Positions 3,642 through 25,879 of a stretch of 64,000 bases of DNA are shown here, piece by piece. This DNA comes from Escherichia coli (GTDB lineage: Bacteria > Pseudomonadota > Gammaproteobacteria > Enterobacterales > Enterobacteriaceae). Location: assembly GCF_001677475.2 (NCBI RefSeq), contig NZ_CP015229.1; one strand, written 5' to 3'. The position numbers and the translations under genes are program-made. The notes below the pieces were generated by a model. It did no database searches. It worked only from the letters and a program-made list of their open reading frames with translations, and had not been told where the DNA came from. Every line of letters starts with the position of its first letter. Position 1 is the first letter of the stretch.

Positions 3642-4901
3642 ATGACACGGGCCGTGAAACCGCGCAGGTTTGCAATCAGGCCCATCATCTACGCCAGCGT
3701 TCTGAGCGCTGGCGTATTGTTGTGCGCCTTTTCCGCCCACGCGGATGAGCGTGACCAACTCAAATCCATTCAGGCTGACATCGCCGCGAAAGAGCGCGCG
3801 GTACGCCAAAAGCAACAACAACGCGCAAGCCTGCTCGCACAATTGAAAAAGCAGGAAGAAGCGATCTCTGAAGCCACCCGTAAACTGCGCGAAACGCAAA
3901 ACACGCTCAATCAACTGAATAAACAGATTGATGAGATGAACGCGTCGATTGCCAAACTGGAGCAGCAAAAAGCCGCCCAGGAGCGCAGCCTCGCCGCACA
4001 ACTGGATGCCGCATTCCGTCAGGGCGAGCATACCGGTATTCAGCTAATTCTCAGCGGTGAAGAAAGCCAGCGTGGTCAGCGTTTACAGGCTTATTTCGGC
4101 TATCTCAACCAGGCGCGACAAGAAACCATTGCTCAGTTGAAACAAACGCGTGAAGAAGTCGCTATGCAGCGTGCCGAACTGGAAGAGAAACAGAGCGAGC
4201 AACAAACGCTTTTATATGAGCAGCGCGCCCAACAGGCGAAGCTGACCCAGGCGTTGAGCGAGCGTAAAAAGACGCTGGCAGGGCTGGAGTCTTCCATCCA
4301 GCAAGGTCAGCAACAGTTGAGCGAGCTGCGCGCCAACGAATCCCGTCTGCGTAACAGCATTGCCCGTGCGGAAGCCGCGGCGAAAGCGCGTGCTGAACGT
4401 GAAGCGCGCGAAGCCCAGGCGGTTCGCGACCGCCAGAAAGAAGCGACGCGCAAAGGCACCACCTACAAACCGACCGAAAGCGAAAAATCGCTGATGTCCC
4501 GAACTGGTGGCCTGGGTGCGCCGCGTGGTCAGGCATTCTGGCCGGTTCGCGGGCCGACGTTGCATCGCTATGGCGAGCAGCTACAGGGTGAATTACGCTG
4601 GAAAGGGATGGTTATCGGTGCCTCTGAAGGTACTGAAGTTAAAGCGATTGCCGACGGTCGGGTGATTCTGGCTGACTGGCTGCAAGGCTACGGTCTGGTG
4701 GTGGTGGTTGAGCATGGTAAAGGCGACATGAGTCTTTACGGCTATAATCAGAGCGCACTGGTGAGCGTTGGTTCGCAGGTTCGCGCGGGCCAGCCAATTG
4801 CACTGGTGGGCAGCAGTGGCGGTCAGGGTCGGCCTTCACTCTATTTCGAAATTCGCCGCCAGGGTCAGGCGGTCAATCCACAGCCGTGGTTGGGAAGATA
4901 A
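3642..4901 (+). CDS. envC: murein hydrolase activator EnvC (coiled-coil plus LytM/M23 domain)
   Basis: Signal peptide MTRAVKPRRFAIRPIIYASVLSAGVLLCAFSAHA, Q/E-rich coiled coil, C-terminal M23-like domain; 419 aa from ATG 3642. Confidence 0.92.
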   Translation: MTRAVKPRRFAIRPIIYASVLSAGVLLCAFSAHADERDQLKSIQADIAAKERAVRQKQQQRASLLAQLKKQEEAISEATRKLRETQNTLNQLNKQIDEMNASIAKLEQQKAAQERSLAAQLDAAFRQGEHTGIQLILSGEESQRGQRLQAYFGYLNQARQETIAQLKQTREEVAMQRAELEEKQSEQQTLLYEQRAQQAKLTQALSERKKTLAGLESSIQQGQQQLSELRANESRLRNSIARAEAAAKARAEREAREAQAVRDRQKEATRKGTTYKPTESEKSLMSRTGGLGAPRGQAFWPVRGPTLHRYGEQLQGELRWKGMVIGASEGTEVKAIADGRVILADWLQGYGLVVVVEHGKGDMSLYGYNQSALVSVGSQVRAGQPIALVGSSGGQGRPSLYFEIRRQGQAVNPQPWLGR

Positions 4902-4904
4902 GTT

Positions 4905-5864
4905 TTGTTTCCATTTCGTCGTAACGTTCTTGCATTTGCCGCTCTGTTGGCGCTCTCCTCCCCCGTAATTGCTGGCAAACTTGCCATCGTCATTGATGAT
5001 TTTGGGTATCGCCCGCACAACGAAAACCAGGTGCTGGCGATGCCTTCCGCTATCTCCGTCGCTGTATTACCCGATTCACCGCACGCCAGAGAGATGGCAA
5101 CCAAAGCGCATAACAGCGGTCACGAAGTGTTGATTCATCTACCGATGGCACCACTGAGTAAACAGCCGCTGGAGAAAAATACGCTACGCCCGGAGATGAG
5201 CAGCGACGAAATTGAGCGCATTATTCGTAGTGCGGTCAATAATGTGCCCTATGCCGTGGGGATCAACAACCACATGGGCAGCAAGATGACCTCTAACCTG
5301 TTTGGTATGCAGAAAGTGATGCAGGCGCTGGAGCGTTACAATCTTTACTTCCTCGACAGCGTAACCATTGGTAATACCCAGGCGATGCGCGCCGCGCAAG
5401 GCACTGGCGTGAAGGTGATCAAACGGAAGGTGTTCCTCGACGATTCACAGAACGAAGCGGACATCCGTGTGCAGTTCAATCGCGCAATTGATCTGGCGCG
5501 TCGCAACGGTTCGACCATTGCCATTGGGCATCCTCACCCTTCCACGGTACGCGTGTTACAACAGATGGTTTATAACCTGCCGCCAGACATTACGCTGGTG
5601 AAAGCCAGCAGCTTGCTGAATGAACCGCAGGTTGATACGTCTACACCGCCGAAAAACACTGTGCCCGACACACCGCGTAATCCGTTCCGTGGCGTGAAGC
5701 TCTGCAAACCGAAGAAACCGATAGAACCTGTTTATGCTAATCGCTTCTTTGAAGTATTAAGCGAAAGCATCAGCCAGAGCACGCTGATCGTTTACTTCCA
5801 ACATCAGTGGCAAGGCTGGGGCAAACAGCCCGAAGCGGCAAAACTTAACGCTAGCGCAAATTAA
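4905..5864 (+). CDS. yibQ: divergent polysaccharide deacetylase family protein YibQ
   Basis: 319 aa ORF with TTG start 3 nt after envC stop; signal peptide; synteny. Confidence 0.85.
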   Translation: MFPFRRNVLAFAALLALSSPVIAGKLAIVIDDFGYRPHNENQVLAMPSAISVAVLPDSPHAREMATKAHNSGHEVLIHLPMAPLSKQPLEKNTLRPEMSSDEIERIIRSAVNNVPYAVGINNHMGSKMTSNLFGMQKVMQALERYNLYFLDSVTIGNTQAMRAAQGTGVKVIKRKVFLDDSQNEADIRVQFNRAIDLARRNGSTIAIGHPHPSTVRVLQQMVYNLPPDITLVKASSLLNEPQVDTSTPPKNTVPDTPRNPFRGVKLCKPKKPIEPVYANRFFEVLSESISQSTLIVYFQHQWQGWGKQPEAAKLNASAN

Positions 5865-6885
5865 AGGCGCTGCGCGTAATGCGATGGTGCGACCGCGTTT
5901 TGTCGCGCCATTGCCATAAGCGGAAAGACCACAGTAACGCCTGATAACCCACCTTCACGCTGCGCACATTGGTAATCAGGCGCTTATACATACCGGAAGT
6001 AAATATCTCGGCAATCATCCGTTGGCGGGTAATAATATCCGGCTCTTTACGCACCGCATGGCAAACACGCAATGCTTCGTAAGTTATTTGCTGATGAAAT
6101 TCCGGGTAAATCGTAATTTTGTCGGCATAATTTCGATTTAATTTCTCCAGCAGGCGGGTAATCTTAATATAGTGACGTTGATAATTAAGGTTTTTATTCC
6201 CTTGTCTATTCAACCGACTCACTGACGTATTATGCAGATAATATTTATATAACGATTGCTCGGTATATCGCGCACGCAAAGCGTTAAACATGAATTCTGT
6301 TGTCCAGACAATATCCTGATGATGTAATCCGGCTATAAATTTAATGTTATTTTTAACAATAACATCGCGGCGATAAACCCCCATCCAGACAACGTGAGTC
6401 CAACGGCGCGAAGAAAGCCCCATCCGCAGCCAGTCCGGGCCGGTTAATACGCCGGTTGAGCGAAGGCGATCGGTGGGGATGGATTGCCAGGTTTCTCCCG
6501 TTTCACGAAAACACCAATCAGCGTTGCACTGCGCCACGTCGAGGTCGTCCTCTAACGCCATGGTCATCAGCGTTTCGTACATGGTGGGATAGACCTCATC
6601 GTCAGCATCGACAAAAGCGACATATTTTCCCGTTGCCACTTCAATCCCACGATTACGCGCCACCGATGCGCCAGCATTCGCCTGATGCAACAAACGAACG
6701 TGCGGATAGTTTTCTGCGTAATACTTTGCTATTTCAACAGAATTATCCGTTGAACCATCGTTAATAATAATGATTTCCAGAGCAGTCCAGGTTTGCGTAA
6801 TTAAAGATTCCATACAAGTGCGGAAATCATCGCCCGCATTATATAACGGAATAATAACACTAAGTTTATTGGTGCTGTTCATCAT
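5851..6885 (-). CDS. waaH: family 2 glycosyltransferase (LPS core glucuronic acid transferase WaaH)
   Basis: 344 aa; N-terminal GT2 motifs (LSVIIPLYNAGDDF, DGSTDNS, DADDE); position next to tdh. Confidence 0.85.
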   Translation of the reverse strand: MMNSTNKLSVIIPLYNAGDDFRTCMESLITQTWTALEIIIINDGSTDNSVEIAKYYAENYPHVRLLHQANAGASVARNRGIEVATGKYVAFVDADDEVYPTMYETLMTMALEDDLDVAQCNADWCFRETGETWQSIPTDRLRSTGVLTGPDWLRMGLSSRRWTHVVWMGVYRRDVIVKNNIKFIAGLHHQDIVWTTEFMFNALRARYTEQSLYKYYLHNTSVSRLNRQGNKNLNYQRHYIKITRLLEKLNRNYADKITIYPEFHQQITYEALRVCHAVRKEPDIITRQRMIAEIFTSGMYKRLITNVRSVKVGYQALLWSFRLWQWRDKTRSHHRITRSAFNLR

Positions 6886-7090
6886 AAATTACCGACGACC
6901 TCTGAAGTTATCCTGACGTTTTACAGGCTTTGTATTAAGAAACTATTAAGCCTGTGAGATATTATTTTTACAGGTGAGAGAGTCACTTCAGAGTAGAGAG
7001 ATAATGAGAGCAGCTATATAAGAGATCAGCGCAATTACGATATCTTTATTACACTGACAGGATTTTACATATTTAACGGATTATCCTCAG

Positions 7091-7116
7091 GCAAAAGGGC
7101 TGGAATACCAGCCCTT
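7091..7116 (-). terminator. hairpin terminator downstream of tdh (kbl-tdh operon)
   Basis: Perfect 9 bp stem AAGGGCTGG/CCAGCCCTT with 4 nt loop, followed on the minus strand by TTTTGCC, just after the tdh stop. Confidence 0.55.
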
Positions 7117-7123
7117 GTTCGTG

Positions 7124-8149
7124 TTAATCCCAGCTCAGAATAACTTTCCCGGACTGGCCCGAACGCATGGCGTCAAAGCCCTTCTGGAAATCATCGATAG
7201 AGAAACGATGGGTAATGATCGGCGAGAGATCGAGGCCAGACTGAATCAGCGCCGCCATCTTGTACCAGGTTTCAAACATCTCACGACCGTAAATACCTTT
7301 AATGAACAAGCCTTTAAAGATCACTTTGGTCCAGTCGATAGACATATCAGACGGTGGAATACCCAGCATCGCAATGCGACCGCCGTGGTTCATGGTGTCG
7401 AGCATGGTACGAAACGCTGGCGGCGCACCGGACATTTCCAGACCGACATCAAAGCCTTCGGTCATGCCTAGCTCCGCCATCACGTCATTGAGATTTTCTT
7501 TCGCGACGTTAACCGCACGGGTGATACCCATTTTGCGCGCCAGCTCAAGGCGGTATTCGTTAACATCAGTAATCACCACGTTACGTGCACCAACGTGTTT
7601 CGCCACCGCCGCCGCCATAATACCAATCGGGCCTGCACCAGAGACCAGCACATCCTCGCCCACCAGATCAAACGACAGCGCGGTATGCACGGCGTTACCG
7701 AAGGGATCAAAAATGGAAGCCAGATCATCGGAGATATTGTCGGGGATTTTGAAAGCGTTGAACGCCGGAATCACCAGATACTCGGCGAAGCAGCCCGGAC
7801 GGTTAACGCCGACGCCGATCGTGTTGCGGCACAGATGGGTACGACCGCCACGACAGTTGCGACAGTGACCGCAGGTGATATGGCCTTCGCCAGAAACGCG
7901 ATCGCCAATCTTGAAGCCTTTCACTTCCTGACCAATACCTACCACTTCACCGACATATTCATGGCCCACGACCATCGGCACCGGGATGGTTTTTTGCGAC
8001 CACTCATCCCAGTTATAGATGTGAACGTCAGTCCCGCAGATGGCTGTTTTACGGATTTTAATCAGCAGATCGTTATGCCCGAGTTCCGGTACAGGAACGT
8101 CGGTCATCCAGATGCCCTCTTCCGCTTTCAGTTTGGATAACGCTTTCAT
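7124..8149 (-). CDS. tdh: L-threonine 3-dehydrogenase (zinc ADH family)
   Basis: 341 aa; [43 protein letters not shown], zinc-binding ADH motifs. Confidence 0.95.
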
Positions 8150-8158
8150 CTCACATCC

Positions 8159-9355
8159 TCAGGCGATAACGCCCAGTTGTTTACCAATACGCGTGAATGC
8201 TTCTACTGCACGCGTAATTTGCTCAGGGGTATGCGCCGCAGACATCTGGGTACGAATACGCGCCTGACCTTTCGGAACGACCGGATAGAAGAAACCGGTG
8301 ACGTAAATGCCCTCTTTTTGCAGCTCACGGGCAAATTTCTGCGCCACTACTGCATCACCAAGCATGACCGGAATAATGGCGTGATCGGCTCCCGCCAGGG
8401 TAAAGCCCGCCGCCGACATTTGCTCACGGAACTGACGCGCGTTCGCCCAGAGACGGTCACGCAGCTCGCTACCCGCTTCAACCATCTCCAGCACTTTGAT
8501 GGACGCGGCAACAATGGCCGGTGCCAGCGAGTTGGAGAACAGGTACGGACGAGAACGCTGGCGCAGCCACTCAACCACTTCTTTGCGCGCCGCGGTATAA
8601 CCACCAGAAGCCCCGCCCAGCGCTTTACCGAGCGTGCCGGTGATAATATCGACCCGGCCCATCACATCGCAGTATTCATGGGAACCACGACCGTTTTCAC
8701 CGACAAAACCTACCGCGTGGGAGTCGTCTACCATCACCAGGGCATCATATTTATCTGCCAGATCGCAAACGCCCTTCAGGTTGGCAATCACGCCGTCCAT
8801 CGAGAACACACCATCGGTGGCAATCAGCACATGACGCGCACCGGCTTCACGCGCTTCTTTCAGACGTGCTTCCAGCTCCTGCATATCGTTGTTGGCATAG
8901 CGATAGCGTTTAGCTTTGCACAGACGCACACCATCAATAATAGACGCGTGGTTCAGTGCGTCGGAGATAATGGCGTCCTCCGCGCCTAACAGCGTTTCGA
9001 ACAGGCCACCGTTAGCATCAAAGCAGGAAGAGTAGAGAATCGCATCTTCCATCCCCAGGAAGGCCGCCAGTTTTTGTTCAAGCTCTTTATGGCTGTCCTG
9101 AGTGCCGCAAATAAAACGCACCGAAGCCATGCCGAAACCGTGAGAATCCATTCCCGCCTTTGCTGCCGCAATCAGATCCGGATGATTCGCCAGCCCGAGA
9201 TAGTTGTTGGCACAAAAGTTAATGACGTGGCTTCCATCAGCCACAGTGATATCTGCTTGCTGCGCAGACGTAATAATGCGCTCTTCTTTAAACAACCCTT
9301 CCGCCCGTGCGGTTTCCAGATCGTTGGTTAACTGCTGATAAAATTCTCCACGCAT
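8159..9355 (-). CDS. kbl: 2-amino-3-ketobutyrate CoA ligase (glycine C-acetyltransferase)
   Basis: 398 aa PLP-dependent class II aminotransferase fold; adjacent to and co-oriented with tdh. Confidence 0.95.
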
Positions 9356-9568
9356 TGCGATTCTCCAGACAGGGCAAATTCCAGCACATATTACCCAAAC
9401 TTATAGGTCGCGACGAGATGACGCGTTAACACTTCTGCAAAATTCAGGATAAATAACGTCCATCAATCTCACTTTTGGCGAATGGCTGAAGCCAACGCCG
9501 TGTAGTGATATGATAGAAGTATTCGTGTCTGAGATTGTCTCTGACTCCATAATTCGAAGGTTACAGTT

Positions 9569-10501
9569 ATGATCATCGTTACCGGCGGCGCGGGCTTTAT
9601 CGGCAGCAACATCGTTAAGGCCCTGAATGATAAAGGCATCACCGATATTCTGGTGGTGGACAACCTGAAAGACGGCACCAAGTTTGTGAACCTGGTGGAT
9701 CTGAATATCGCGGACTATATGGATAAGGAAGACTTCCTGATCCAGATTATGGCTGGCGAAGAGTTCGGTGATGTCGAAGCGATTTTCCACGAGGGCGCAT
9801 GCTCTTCCACCACCGAGTGGGATGGCAAGTATATGATGGATAACAACTATCAATACTCCAAAGAGCTGTTGCACTACTGTCTGGAGCGCGAAATCCCGTT
9901 CCTGTATGCCTCTTCCGCAGCCACCTACGGCGGACGCACCTCCGACTTTATTGAATCCCGCGAATACGAAAAACCACTGAACGTCTACGGTTACTCAAAA
10001 TTCCTGTTTGATGAATATGTTCGTCAAATTCTGCCGGAAGCAAACTCACAGATTGTTGGCTTCCGTTATTTCAACGTTTATGGACCGCGTGAAGGCCATA
10101 AAGGCAGCATGGCGAGCGTCGCTTTCCATCTCAACACCCAGCTTAACAACGGTGAATCGCCAAAACTGTTCGAAGGTAGCGAGAACTTCAAACGCGACTT
10201 CGTCTATGTGGGCGACGTGGCAGATGTAAACCTGTGGTTCCTGGAAAATGGCGTTTCCGGCATCTTCAACCTCGGCACCGGTCGTGCGGAATCCTTCCAG
10301 GCTGTAGCTGATGCTACGCTGGCTTATCACAAGAAAGGCCAGATCGAATACATTCCGTTCCCGGATAAGCTGAAAGGCCGCTACCAGGCGTTCACTCAGG
10401 CAGATCTGACAAATCTGCGCGCGGCGGGTTACGACAAACCGTTCAAAACCGTTGCTGAAGGTGTAACGGAATACATGGCCTGGCTGAATCGCGACGCGTA
10501 A
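9569..10501 (+). CDS. hldD: ADP-L-glycero-D-manno-heptose 6-epimerase
   Basis: 310 aa; [26 protein letters not shown]-binding motif; leads the waaFCL operon. Confidence 0.95.
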
Positions 10502-10503
10502 CT

Positions 10504-11550
10504 ATGAAGATTTTGGTGATAGGCCCGTCTTGGGTTGGCGACATGATGATGTCGCAAAGTCTCTATCGCACGCTCCAGGCGCGCTATCCCCAGGCGATAA
10601 TCGACGTGATGGCACCGGCATGGTGCCGTCCGTTATTATCGCGGATGCCGGAAGTTAACGAAGCTATCCCTATGCCTCTCGGTCACGGAGCGCTGGAAAT
10701 CGGCGAACGCCGCAAACTGGGTCATAGTCTGCGTGAAAAGCGCTACGACCGCGCCTACGTCTTACCTAACTCCTTCAAATCCGCATTAGTGCCTTTCTTC
10801 GCGGGTATTCCTCATCGCACCGGCTGGCGCGGCGAGATGCGCTACGGTTTACTCAACGATGTACGCGTGCTCGATAAAGAAGCCTGGCCGCTAATGGTGG
10901 AACGCTATGTCGCGCTGGCCTATGACAAAGGCGTTATGCGTACCGCACAAGATCTGCCGCAACCATTGTTATGGCCGCAGTTGCAGGTGAGCGAAGGTGA
11001 AAAATCATATACCTGTAATCAATTTTCGCTTTCATCAGAACGTCCGATGATTGGTTTTTGCCCGGGGGCGGAGTTTGGTCCGGCAAAACGCTGGCCACAC
11101 TACCACTATGCTGAGCTGGCAAAGCAGCTGATTGATGAAGGTTATCAGGTGGTTCTGTTTGGTTCGGCGAAAGATCATGAGGCGGGCAATGAGATACTCG
11201 CCGCACTGAATACTGAGCAGCAGGCATGGTGTCGGAACCTGGCGGGGGAAACACAGCTTGATCAAGCGGTTATCCTGATTGCAGCCTGTAAAGCCATTGT
11301 CACTAACGATTCTGGCCTGATGCACGTTGCGGCGGCGCTCAATCGTCCGCTGGTTGCCCTGTATGGTCCGAGTAGCCCGGACTTCACACCGCCACTATCC
11401 CATAAAGCGCGCGTGATCCGCCTGATTACCGGCTATCACAAAGTGCGTAAAGGTGACGCTGCGGAGGGTTATCACCAGAGCTTGATCGACATTACTCCCC
11501 AGCGCGTACTGGAAGAACTCAACGCGCTATTGTTACAAGAGGAAGCCTGA
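10504..11550 (+). CDS. waaF: ADP-heptose:LPS heptosyltransferase II
   Basis: 348 aa GT9 family; MKILVIGPSWVGDMMMSQSLY. Confidence 0.93.
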   Translation: MKILVIGPSWVGDMMMSQSLYRTLQARYPQAIIDVMAPAWCRPLLSRMPEVNEAIPMPLGHGALEIGERRKLGHSLREKRYDRAYVLPNSFKSALVPFFAGIPHRTGWRGEMRYGLLNDVRVLDKEAWPLMVERYVALAYDKGVMRTAQDLPQPLLWPQLQVSEGEKSYTCNQFSLSSERPMIGFCPGAEFGPAKRWPHYHYAELAKQLIDEGYQVVLFGSAKDHEAGNEILAALNTEQQAWCRNLAGETQLDQAVILIAACKAIVTNDSGLMHVAAALNRPLVALYGPSSPDFTPPLSHKARVIRLITGYHKVRKGDAAEGYHQSLIDITPQRVLEELNALLLQEEA

Positions 11551-11553
11551 CGG

Positions 11554-22643: not shown

Positions 22644-23710
22644 AATTGTGCATTCCTGTCAGCTGAAGGGGCATCTTCTGGCAACAGCTTTTCCGTAGCG
22701 GCAATGACATCTTCCGCTGGAATAACAGAAAGATATTTTTTGTTGCGGTCAAGTTCGTGCCGGGTAGGCATTTTTTGATAATTCCCCGCCCAGAACTGAA
22801 TAATATTCTCGGTCCATGGACGCCAGAATACATGATCAGTAGCCCCAAACAGGCTAATAACTGGCGTGTTCACCGCCGCCGCAATATGCCCCGGCGCAGA
22901 ATCCACACCAATAAAGAGCACTGCATGATCAATTAATGCGCCCAGTTCAGGAAAACGTGTTTTACCGGCAAGGCCGGTAATAGGTTTTGTTTGGCAGCCT
23001 CGTGCAATTTCATCTACGCAAGCGAGATCATCTGCCGAAGGGCCACAAGTCAGCACAACCTGATAACCACGATGTTGCAACGCATCGATAACCATAGAAA
23101 ATTTATCGTTATCCCAGCACTTAAATAGCTGTCGGGCTGTCGGCTGGATGACGACATAATGATCTTTCACGCCCAGTGCATCTAATTCCTGGCGCATTTT
23201 CTTCCAGCAATCATCAGCATAACTCATTGTTGTTTCAGTATAAAAATCGGTAATACCTAATGACTCAAGGACCGACAAATTACGCTCAACAATATGTGTA
23301 CCGTGTATAGGCGCTAAGTGTGTAAAGCTTTTTTTCCAAATGCCATGCTGCCGATGAGCATAAAGCTGCGATATTTTCATCCGTGCAGGTAAACAACGTA
23401 CCAGCAGGGCCACCATCCACTGATCCGTAAGATTAATGACCAGGTCGTAATTATTCGCACGCAGAGTTTTTATCAGTGAAAGTGCATTTTTAATTTTATC
23501 GAATGTTCCCGCACCTTTATTGCTTATACCATAGAGTGCATTAATTTCTGGGTTTTCAGATAAAATCGGAATTGTATCCTGGTAAAGCAGCATATCGATT
23601 TTAGCATTGGGATAATTCTGCTTGAGTGTACTGATTACAGGAGTAGTTAATAACATATCTCCGTGATATCGCATCTTTATGACCAGGATTTTTCGAAATG
23701 GCTTTTCCAC
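22640..23710 (-). CDS. waaQ: LPS heptosyltransferase III (GT9)
   Basis: ORF from GTG at 23710 (356 aa) or internal Met at 23674 (344 aa); N-terminus ILVIKMRYHGDMLLTTP aligns with WaaC/WaaF N-termini. Confidence 0.85.
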   Translation of the reverse strand: MEKPFRKILVIKMRYHGDMLLTTPVISTLKQNYPNAKIDMLLYQDTIPILSENPEINALYGISNKGAGTFDKIKNALSLIKTLRANNYDLVINLTDQWMVALLVRCLPARMKISQLYAHRQHGIWKKSFTHLAPIHGTHIVERNLSVLESLGITDFYTETTMSYADDCWKKMRQELDALGVKDHYVVIQPTARQLFKCWDNDKFSMVIDALQHRGYQVVLTCGPSADDLACVDEIARGCQTKPITGLAGKTRFPELGALIDHAVLFIGVDSAPGHIAAAVNTPVISLFGATDHVFWRPWTENIIQFWAGNYQKMPTRHELDRNKKYLSVIPAEDVIAATEKLLPEDAPSADRNAQL

Positions 23711-23757
23711 TAGCGACTCTTTTGTGTGATTGTCTGGTTAAGTTAAGCAGAAAAAAG

Positions 23758-23769
23758 CACGCTACCGCC
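23758..23769 (-). promoter_or_regulatory. ops element (RfaH recruitment site) in the waaQ operon leader
   Basis: Minus strand reads GGCGGTAGCGTG, matching the ops consensus GGCGGTAGnnTG, about 50-85 nt upstream of the waaQ start. Confidence 0.8.
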
Positions 23770-24114
23770 CCAGGCTCAACAGCTACCCGAATACTGATAA
23801 CGCACTTACTTTGACGCGCTAGTGTATCATTTCTTTCGCAGCAATCCGACCCGAATGATTTTTATACACAAAATATGATTTAACCATAAAAATCATATAG
23901 ATAAAATTTTGCATACAGAGAATCCAGATATTGTCTATGTAAAGTTGCAATCCTGGCTGAAATTCAATGAATCGCATAAAAATACAAAAAAATGAAGATT
24001 TAGCAGCAGATCAGCTCAAACAGAGACTATTTAAGTCAAAAACGGGAAAAGTAATGGTAAAGCCACAGCTAAATACATAGAATCCCCAGCACATCCATAA
24101 GTCAGCTATTTACT

Positions 24115-25879
<1,765 letters not shown>

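Follow-up and report, generated by a model that had tools for sequence, protein, structure and literature searches.

The kbl–hldD locus

The window, i.e., the whole stretch of 64,000 nucleotides of Escherichia coli DNA analysed here, carries kbl on the minus strand and hldD on the plus strand as directly adjacent, divergent genes. Their start codons (CAT on the plus strand at 9353–9355 for kbl, and ATG at 9569–9571 for hldD) enclose a spacer of exactly 213 bp (Table 1), and the ORF coordinates thereby confirm the distance given in the first-pass annotation of this DNA. Kbl and HldD are each ~100% identical to the corresponding K-12 proteins (tblastn). The ORF list contains no HtrL-like ORF within 9356–9568, and a tblastn search of the entire 64-kb window with K-12 HtrL as query gave no match (best E = 5.5).

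The 213-bp spacer is identical, base for base, in two independent assemblies, GCA_016118615.1 (NCBI) and Logan ERR3309125, and the window as such matches GCA_016118615.1 with 100% identity over 13.3 kb. Because of the agreement between the two assemblies, we regard the spacer as real sequence. That the short distance would instead be an artefact of sequencing or assembly, produced by a collapsed region, has a vanishingly small likelihood, since the same kbl–hldD arrangement is also shared by 3465 complete E. coli genomes.

Table 1. Genes and sequence elements at the kbl–hldD locus, given as positions in the window
Feature	Position	Strand	Basis or remark
kbl (glycine C-acetyltransferase), first gene of the kbl-tdh operon	8159–9355	−	ORF list; Pfam Aminotran_1_2, E = 1.6e-78
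Divergent kbl–hldD intergenic region; very probably the ancestral compact form, without htrL	9356–9568		Collinear with spacers of 202–229 bp in 67/78 Enterobacteriaceae species loci; two assemblies identical
kbl-proximal half, shared with K-12; kbl Shine-Dalgarno and presumed kbl-tdh promoter/regulator region	9356–9459	−	Conservation 0.85–0.98 over most 10-bp bins
kbl Shine-Dalgarno GGAGA	9362–9366	− (reverse complement)	
Candidate kbl −10 hexamer TAATAT	9388–9393	−	ATATTA exact in 56/68 spacers; bin 9386–9395 conservation 0.98
Conserved motif ACGAGATGAC	9413–9422		Alignment of 68 spacers
Highly conserved block AGGATAAATAACGT (family consensus AGCATAAATCACGT), just left of the insertion site	9446–9459		Bin 9446–9455 conservation 0.98
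Least conserved spacer segment; site of htrL, a WaaB-like GT4 gene and presumed ERIC-like ~125-bp inserts elsewhere	9460–9484		Conservation 0.50 for 9466–9475; junction alignments
Candidate core hldD promoter: weak −35 CTGAAG (9486–9491), 17-nt spacer, extended −10 TGaTATGAT (9506–9514)	9486–9514	+	Conservation
Small hairpin in the predicted hldD 5′ leader: arms 9527–9534 and 9538–9545, loop 9535–9537	9527–9545	+	U-U mismatch in the window sequence
hldD Shine-Dalgarno GAAGG, 8 nt before ATG	9556–9560	+	Read from sequence; AAGG nearly invariant in alignment
hldD	9569–10501	+	ORF list; Pfam Epimerase, E = 3.1e-45

Comparison with E. coli K-12

In K-12 MG1655, the gene order is tdh, kbl, htrL (b3618, on the minus strand) and rfaD (b3616–b3619), and the window shares the flanking genes and their orientation. 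The interval between kbl and rfaD/hldD is 1435 bp in K-12 and harbours htrL, which encodes a protein of 285 residues that scores 436 bits on PF09612, whereas the 213-bp interval in the window contains no gene. The first-pass annotation had placed htrL in this slot of K-12, and had noted that a K-12 spacer of the same 213 bp would speak against that order; no such spacer was seen in MG1655, and the order stands. Accordingly, the window has neither an ORF of the HtrL_YibB type (PF09612/TIGR02192) between kbl and hldD nor a ~1.4-kb interval that includes a low-GC block.

The window and K-12 match with ~99% identity up to position 9459, and the match resumes from 9521. The intervening sequence amounts to 61 bp in the window and 1283 bp in K-12. 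On the kbl side, a match of 204 bp comprises 203 identical positions with a single mismatch at 9420, and the kbl-proximal 104 bp of the spacer lie within it; on the other side, the last 48 bp before hldD are common to the two sequences. Within these 61 bp, the right-hand ~40 bp have diverged from K-12 but are still homologous to it, and both versions contain GGCTGAAG, a 17-nt spacer and TATGAT, which puts the true insertion point at ~9460–9484. The core architecture of the candidate hldD promoter, CTGAAG-17-TATGAT, is thus the same in the two strains. The htrL block in K-12 spans ~1.24 kb and has a GC content of 36%, as compared with 54% for kbl and 51% for rfaD. The AT-rich spacer between htrL and hldD in K-12 coincides with an RpoD-holoenzyme SELEX peak flagged with H-NS (PMC3946193), and this AT-rich, H-NS-flagged spacer is a K-12 feature that is absent from the window.

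A search of the htrL junctions for target-site duplications or terminal repeats that would constitute a signature of mobility gave none. In K-12, htrL lies between the arms of an 11-bp inverted repeat, GATAAATAACG (E = 0.23), which was considered as a possible end of a mobile element, but none of the other three htrL haplotypes has this repeat, and we therefore ascribe it to chance and reject it. The donor of the version of the right junction found in K-12 was sought among 67 short spacers, where the best agreement was 26 of 47 positions and no donor was identified.

Distribution of the short and htrL-bearing forms

The first-pass annotation regarded the absence of htrL as a strain-specific difference, and this view does not agree with the distribution of the two forms. 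The short form is contiguous in 3465 of 5426 complete E. coli genomes (64%), and is thus the majority form, and it also prevails in the family (67 of 78 Enterobacteriaceae species). The K-12 htrL segment is present in 1959 of the complete E. coli genomes, nearly full-length in 1950 of these. The sum of 3465 and 1959 is 5424, which is exactly the number of genomes with any match, and the short and htrL-bearing forms appear to be mutually exclusive in this set. Published work on E. coli isolates describes htrL as an accessory gene of variable presence (PMC8303582).

For the family as a whole, a scan based on Kbl with one genome per species, in which polymorphism within species other than E. coli is invisible, returned 80 Enterobacteriaceae loci, 78 of which have both genes. 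In 67 of the 78 loci, the spacer is 202–229 bp long, most commonly 215–216 bp, a range that includes the 213 bp of the window, and is collinear with the window block by block. The blocks comprise, in order, the kbl Shine-Dalgarno sequence, ATATTA, ACGAGATGAC, AGCATAAATCACG, GGCTGAAG, TGrTATGAT, the leader hairpin and the hldD Shine-Dalgarno sequence (MAFFT alignment of 68 spacers, and motif counts). Among the species with short spacers are Salmonella enterica subsp. arizonae, Citrobacter braakii, and species of Enterobacter, Klebsiella, Kluyvera and Buttiauxella. The spacer of E. albertii is 213 bp and 93% identical to that of the window. Relative to the relatives with short spacers (Salmonella, E. 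albertii, C. braakii and Enterobacter, as well as E. coli 7/2 and 18KM2445), the same blocks occur in the same order, and the window differs by point substitutions only. For Salmonella Typhimurium, a published table lists kbl and rfaD as an adjacent divergent pair (PMC10268841), and the compact layout is as such ordinary and already known. htrL occupies the slot in only four of the 80 species loci (L003, L014, L017 and L068), which represent one Escherichia sp. and three Citrobacter.

Since 67 of 78 species loci are short and collinear, and htrL is found in only four, we consider it very probable that the short spacer is the ancestral compact form, that htrL was never lost in the lineage of the window, and that the K-12 form is derived from it by insertion of a low-GC segment of ~1.24 kb. 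A descent of the window from an htrL-bearing ancestor followed by secondary deletion of the gene would be in line with the age of htrL in this slot, as it is present in both Escherichia and Citrobacter with a divergence of 25–28% between them, and with the fact that the window has its waa genes laid out as in K-12, a carrier of htrL. A deletion of this kind would nevertheless have to restore the ancestral sequence exactly, given that the spacer aligns collinearly, block by block, with its counterparts in 67 other species and shares 93% identity with the one in E. albertii. Furthermore, no remnant of htrL is present in the spacer or in the rest of the 64-kb window, and even if the short form had been regained by recombination, a short allele must still have persisted. 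On these grounds, we judge secondary deletion to be improbable.

A gene that has been moved rather than lost can also be considered, with htrL residing at another locus of the source genome outside the 64 kb covered by the HtrL search. The HtrL_YibB family is indeed known from other polysaccharide loci in other bacteria (PMC4172580). In the set of 5426 complete E. coli genomes, on the other hand, 1959 match htrL and 1959 are without a contiguous short spacer, and the equal counts leave no room for genomes that combine a short spacer with a K-12-like htrL elsewhere. Every htrL match in the complete genomes also lies on the chromosome, at a median of one site per genome, and another location of htrL in the source genome is therefore very improbable, more so than a deletion.

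Age and probable exchange of the htrL polymorphism

Between K-12 and the Citrobacter loci, the DNA identity of htrL is 72–75%, as compared with 82–86% for kbl and 88% for hldD. The stronger divergence of htrL relative to the flanking genes implies that it has been resident in the slot for a long time. The htrL gene of the other Escherichia species is 96% identical, which is the same level as for its flanks. The ~45 bp that precede the hldD leader occur in a characteristic version common to all four htrL haplotypes. An origin of htrL before the split between Escherichia and Citrobacter, with many subsequent losses, is formally conceivable and counts against an insertion.

Under the preferred reading, i.e., an ancestral short spacer and an inserted htrL, the ~1.24-kb block found in about a third of E. 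coli, including K-12, would consist of htrL together with its own AT-rich upstream region. It would have entered the least conserved ~25 bp, with the kbl-side conserved block on its left and the core promoter of hldD on its right. As an old insertion, it has presumably been kept alongside the short form as a presence/absence polymorphism in both Escherichia and Citrobacter, and homologous recombination in the conserved genes on either side has probably swapped the two forms.

Genomic context and the waa cluster

The window follows K-12 in the layout of its waa cluster (waaL, waaU, waaZ, waaY, waaJ, waaO, waaB, waaS, waaP, waaG and waaQ), where the sequence identity to K-12 is only 93.8%. Over 5000–25000, the identity to any complete E. 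coli genome is at most 98.8%, and for 1.1 kb centred on the spacer at most 98.9%. The region 26000–50000, which covers 24 kb of housekeeping genes, reaches a best identity of 97.8% among the 5426 complete E. coli genomes. By these identities, the window is unusually remote from all of the 5426 genomes, and its lineage, which may be a Shigella or a deep-branching E. coli, has no representative among them.

The polymorphism of the waa core types (K-12 and R1–R4) offers a parallel, as htrL is likewise of low GC content, variably present, and located at the edge of the waa cluster. In a sample of a handful of genomes, htrL accompanies clusters of the K-12 type and the R3 type, and is absent from a cluster of the R1 type. 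The window and its eight closest relatives combine the K-12 waa layout with the absence of htrL. Because the window has this layout without the gene, the layout of the core cluster does not determine whether htrL is present.

Several other features of the region were observed. Compared with both K-12 and the nearest E. coli genome, the waaS gene (19768–20692) lacks 11 bp near 20058, a deletion that apparently breaks the gene and splits its frame into three ORF fragments (19768–20085, 20045–20275 and 20291–20692). The distance from the hldD stop codon to the waaF start codon (10501–10504) is 7 bp shorter than in K-12 and the nearest E. coli genome, which leaves a gap of 2 nt as opposed to 9 nt, and two independent assemblies agree on the shortening. 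The waaZ gene carries a 5-bp insertion (TCTTA) close to its 3′ end (14965–14970) relative to the nearest E. coli genome, and the called product has 271 residues versus 285. A JUMPstart element (Rfam, 53 bits) is located upstream of waaQ at 23758–23796 on the minus strand, and selC, the gene for selenocysteine tRNA (Rfam, 84 bits), is located at 51807–51897 on the plus strand; both are expected features of the region.

Conserved elements and candidate promoters

Conservation within the spacer was evaluated in 10-bp bins in a MAFFT alignment of 68 sequences. On the kbl side, the position of the candidate −10 hexamer would place the transcription start of kbl near 9381. The conserved block immediately to the left of the insertion site is retained in the htrL haplotypes of K-12, L003 and L017, and presumably represents the binding site of a regulator. 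On the hldD side, the extended −10 element is found as TG(A/G)TATGAT in 66 of the 68 spacers, with the 17-nt spacing in 39, and the architecture of the candidate promoter is maintained in all four htrL-bearing haplotypes. This promoter would initiate transcription of hldD near 9521.

A strict scan for the sigma-70 consensus and a scan for terminators returned nothing within 9250–9700, and the promoter assignments consequently derive from conservation only. The assumption in the first-pass annotation that both promoters have to be accommodated in the short spacer appears plausible, considering that the spacer shares 99% identity with K-12 over its kbl-proximal 104 bp, and that the extended −10 element of hldD is found in both forms. 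In the short form, the ~100 bp beside kbl would then serve the control of kbl-tdh, and the ~80 bp beside hldD would accommodate an extended −10 promoter for the operon hldD-waaFCL and, downstream of it, a short leader containing the hairpin.

No mapped start of transcription for kbl or hldD emerged from searches of the literature; the promoters of htrM/rfaD were reportedly mapped by Raina and Georgopoulos in 1991. According to the statement in PMC8745692 that cites Raina and Georgopoulos 1991, the hldD operon is induced at elevated temperature. A possible sigma-32 motif was considered at 9545–9552, where CTCCATAA resembles CCCCATnT, but it lacks an acceptable −35 element and would leave almost no leader, and was rejected upon inspection by eye. 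Inside the hldD coding region, GCCCTGAATGATAAA at 9621–9635 is identical to the marbox predicted for Salmonella Typhimurium where a ChIP peak of Rob lies at kbl–rfaD (PMC10268841).

The hldD leader hairpin

The predicted 5′ leader of hldD contains a small hairpin that occurs at the same place in all 63 distinct leaders, with differing stem sequences, and its position is conserved across 67 Enterobacteriaceae species. A covariance model of the hairpin was built, and 80 sequences were aligned to it. In this alignment, six of the eight base pairs have changed on both sides. The number of cells with double changes is 78, as compared with 21.4 ± 4.8 in shuffles, none of which (0/500) reaches 78, and the covariation score is 0.36 versus 0.18, with slid controls at 0.22 or lower. 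As the alignment was fitted to the hairpin structure, the covariation test favours the structure, and the values should be read accordingly.

Measured against dinucleotide shuffles, the hairpin has a median z of −2.34 across species. The hairpin of the window is itself the weakest, with −6.4 kcal/mol and z = −1.13, and the fold of the whole hldD leader, evaluated for a single sequence, is unexceptional (z = +1.0). With Rfam 15 at gathering thresholds, tRNA-Sec and JUMPstart are the only matches in the window and none falls in the spacer, and a permissive search of 9300–9650, up to E = 1, gave no match to the leader hairpin. Assignment to the RNA thermometers of the ROSE or fourU type was considered and rejected: the Shine-Dalgarno sequence is situated outside the hairpin, which for that reason is not a classical thermometer, and the z-score of the leader fold does not suggest one, so that a thermometer is at most a remote prospect. 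If the hairpin is functional, it could stabilise the 5′ end of the hldD mRNA or contribute to the heat induction of the operon; stabilisation is our best guess, held with low confidence.

Reuse of the insertion point

The slot occupied by htrL in K-12 contains other DNA elsewhere in the family. In Citrobacter youngae and two other Citrobacter loci (L006 at 3696–4847, L007 and L008), it holds a gene for a GT4 glycosyltransferase of 383 residues, and not htrL. Against the model for WaaB, a lipopolysaccharide 1,6-galactosyltransferase, the Citrobacter protein scores 383 bits, as compared with a cut-off of 385. An imperfect palindrome of ~125 bp, with the core AATCCCCGGGAGCATAGATAACTATGTGACCGGGGT, which we take to be ERIC-like, is found at the same variable point in five loci, with spacers of 340 bp (L025, L026, L031 and L036) or 329 bp (L044). 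Two of these loci are labelled Lelliottia or Enterobacter sp., one is from an Enterobacteriaceae bacterium, and the others are from Huaxiibacter and Pseudenterobacter. The kbl–hldD interval of Citrobacter freundii M-21 (L068, 2291–5000) is 2710 bp long and contains, in addition to htrL, ~1.5 kb between htrL and kbl that has no convincing ORF; the kbl-proximal part of the spacer is rearranged as well.

It is possible, if rather doubtful, that the central ~25 bp serve as a recurrent landing site for accessory DNA related to lipopolysaccharide in Enterobacteriaceae, and that the leader hairpin is at the same time a functional cis-acting RNA of the heptose/inner-core operon.

Implications

For E. 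coli, the distribution of the two forms means that a missing htrL should not be read as a loss, whether by annotation pipelines or by readers, and that htrL is to be treated as an accessory gene. It is the reference strain K-12 that very probably carries the derived form, and an expectation centred on K-12 is corrected in this respect. As the majority form is without the AT-rich, H-NS-flagged spacer, findings made in K-12 on regulation upstream of hldD may not transfer to it. The conserved blocks in the spacer and the leader hairpin, on the other hand, provide concrete targets for mapping the control of the heptose/inner-core operon.
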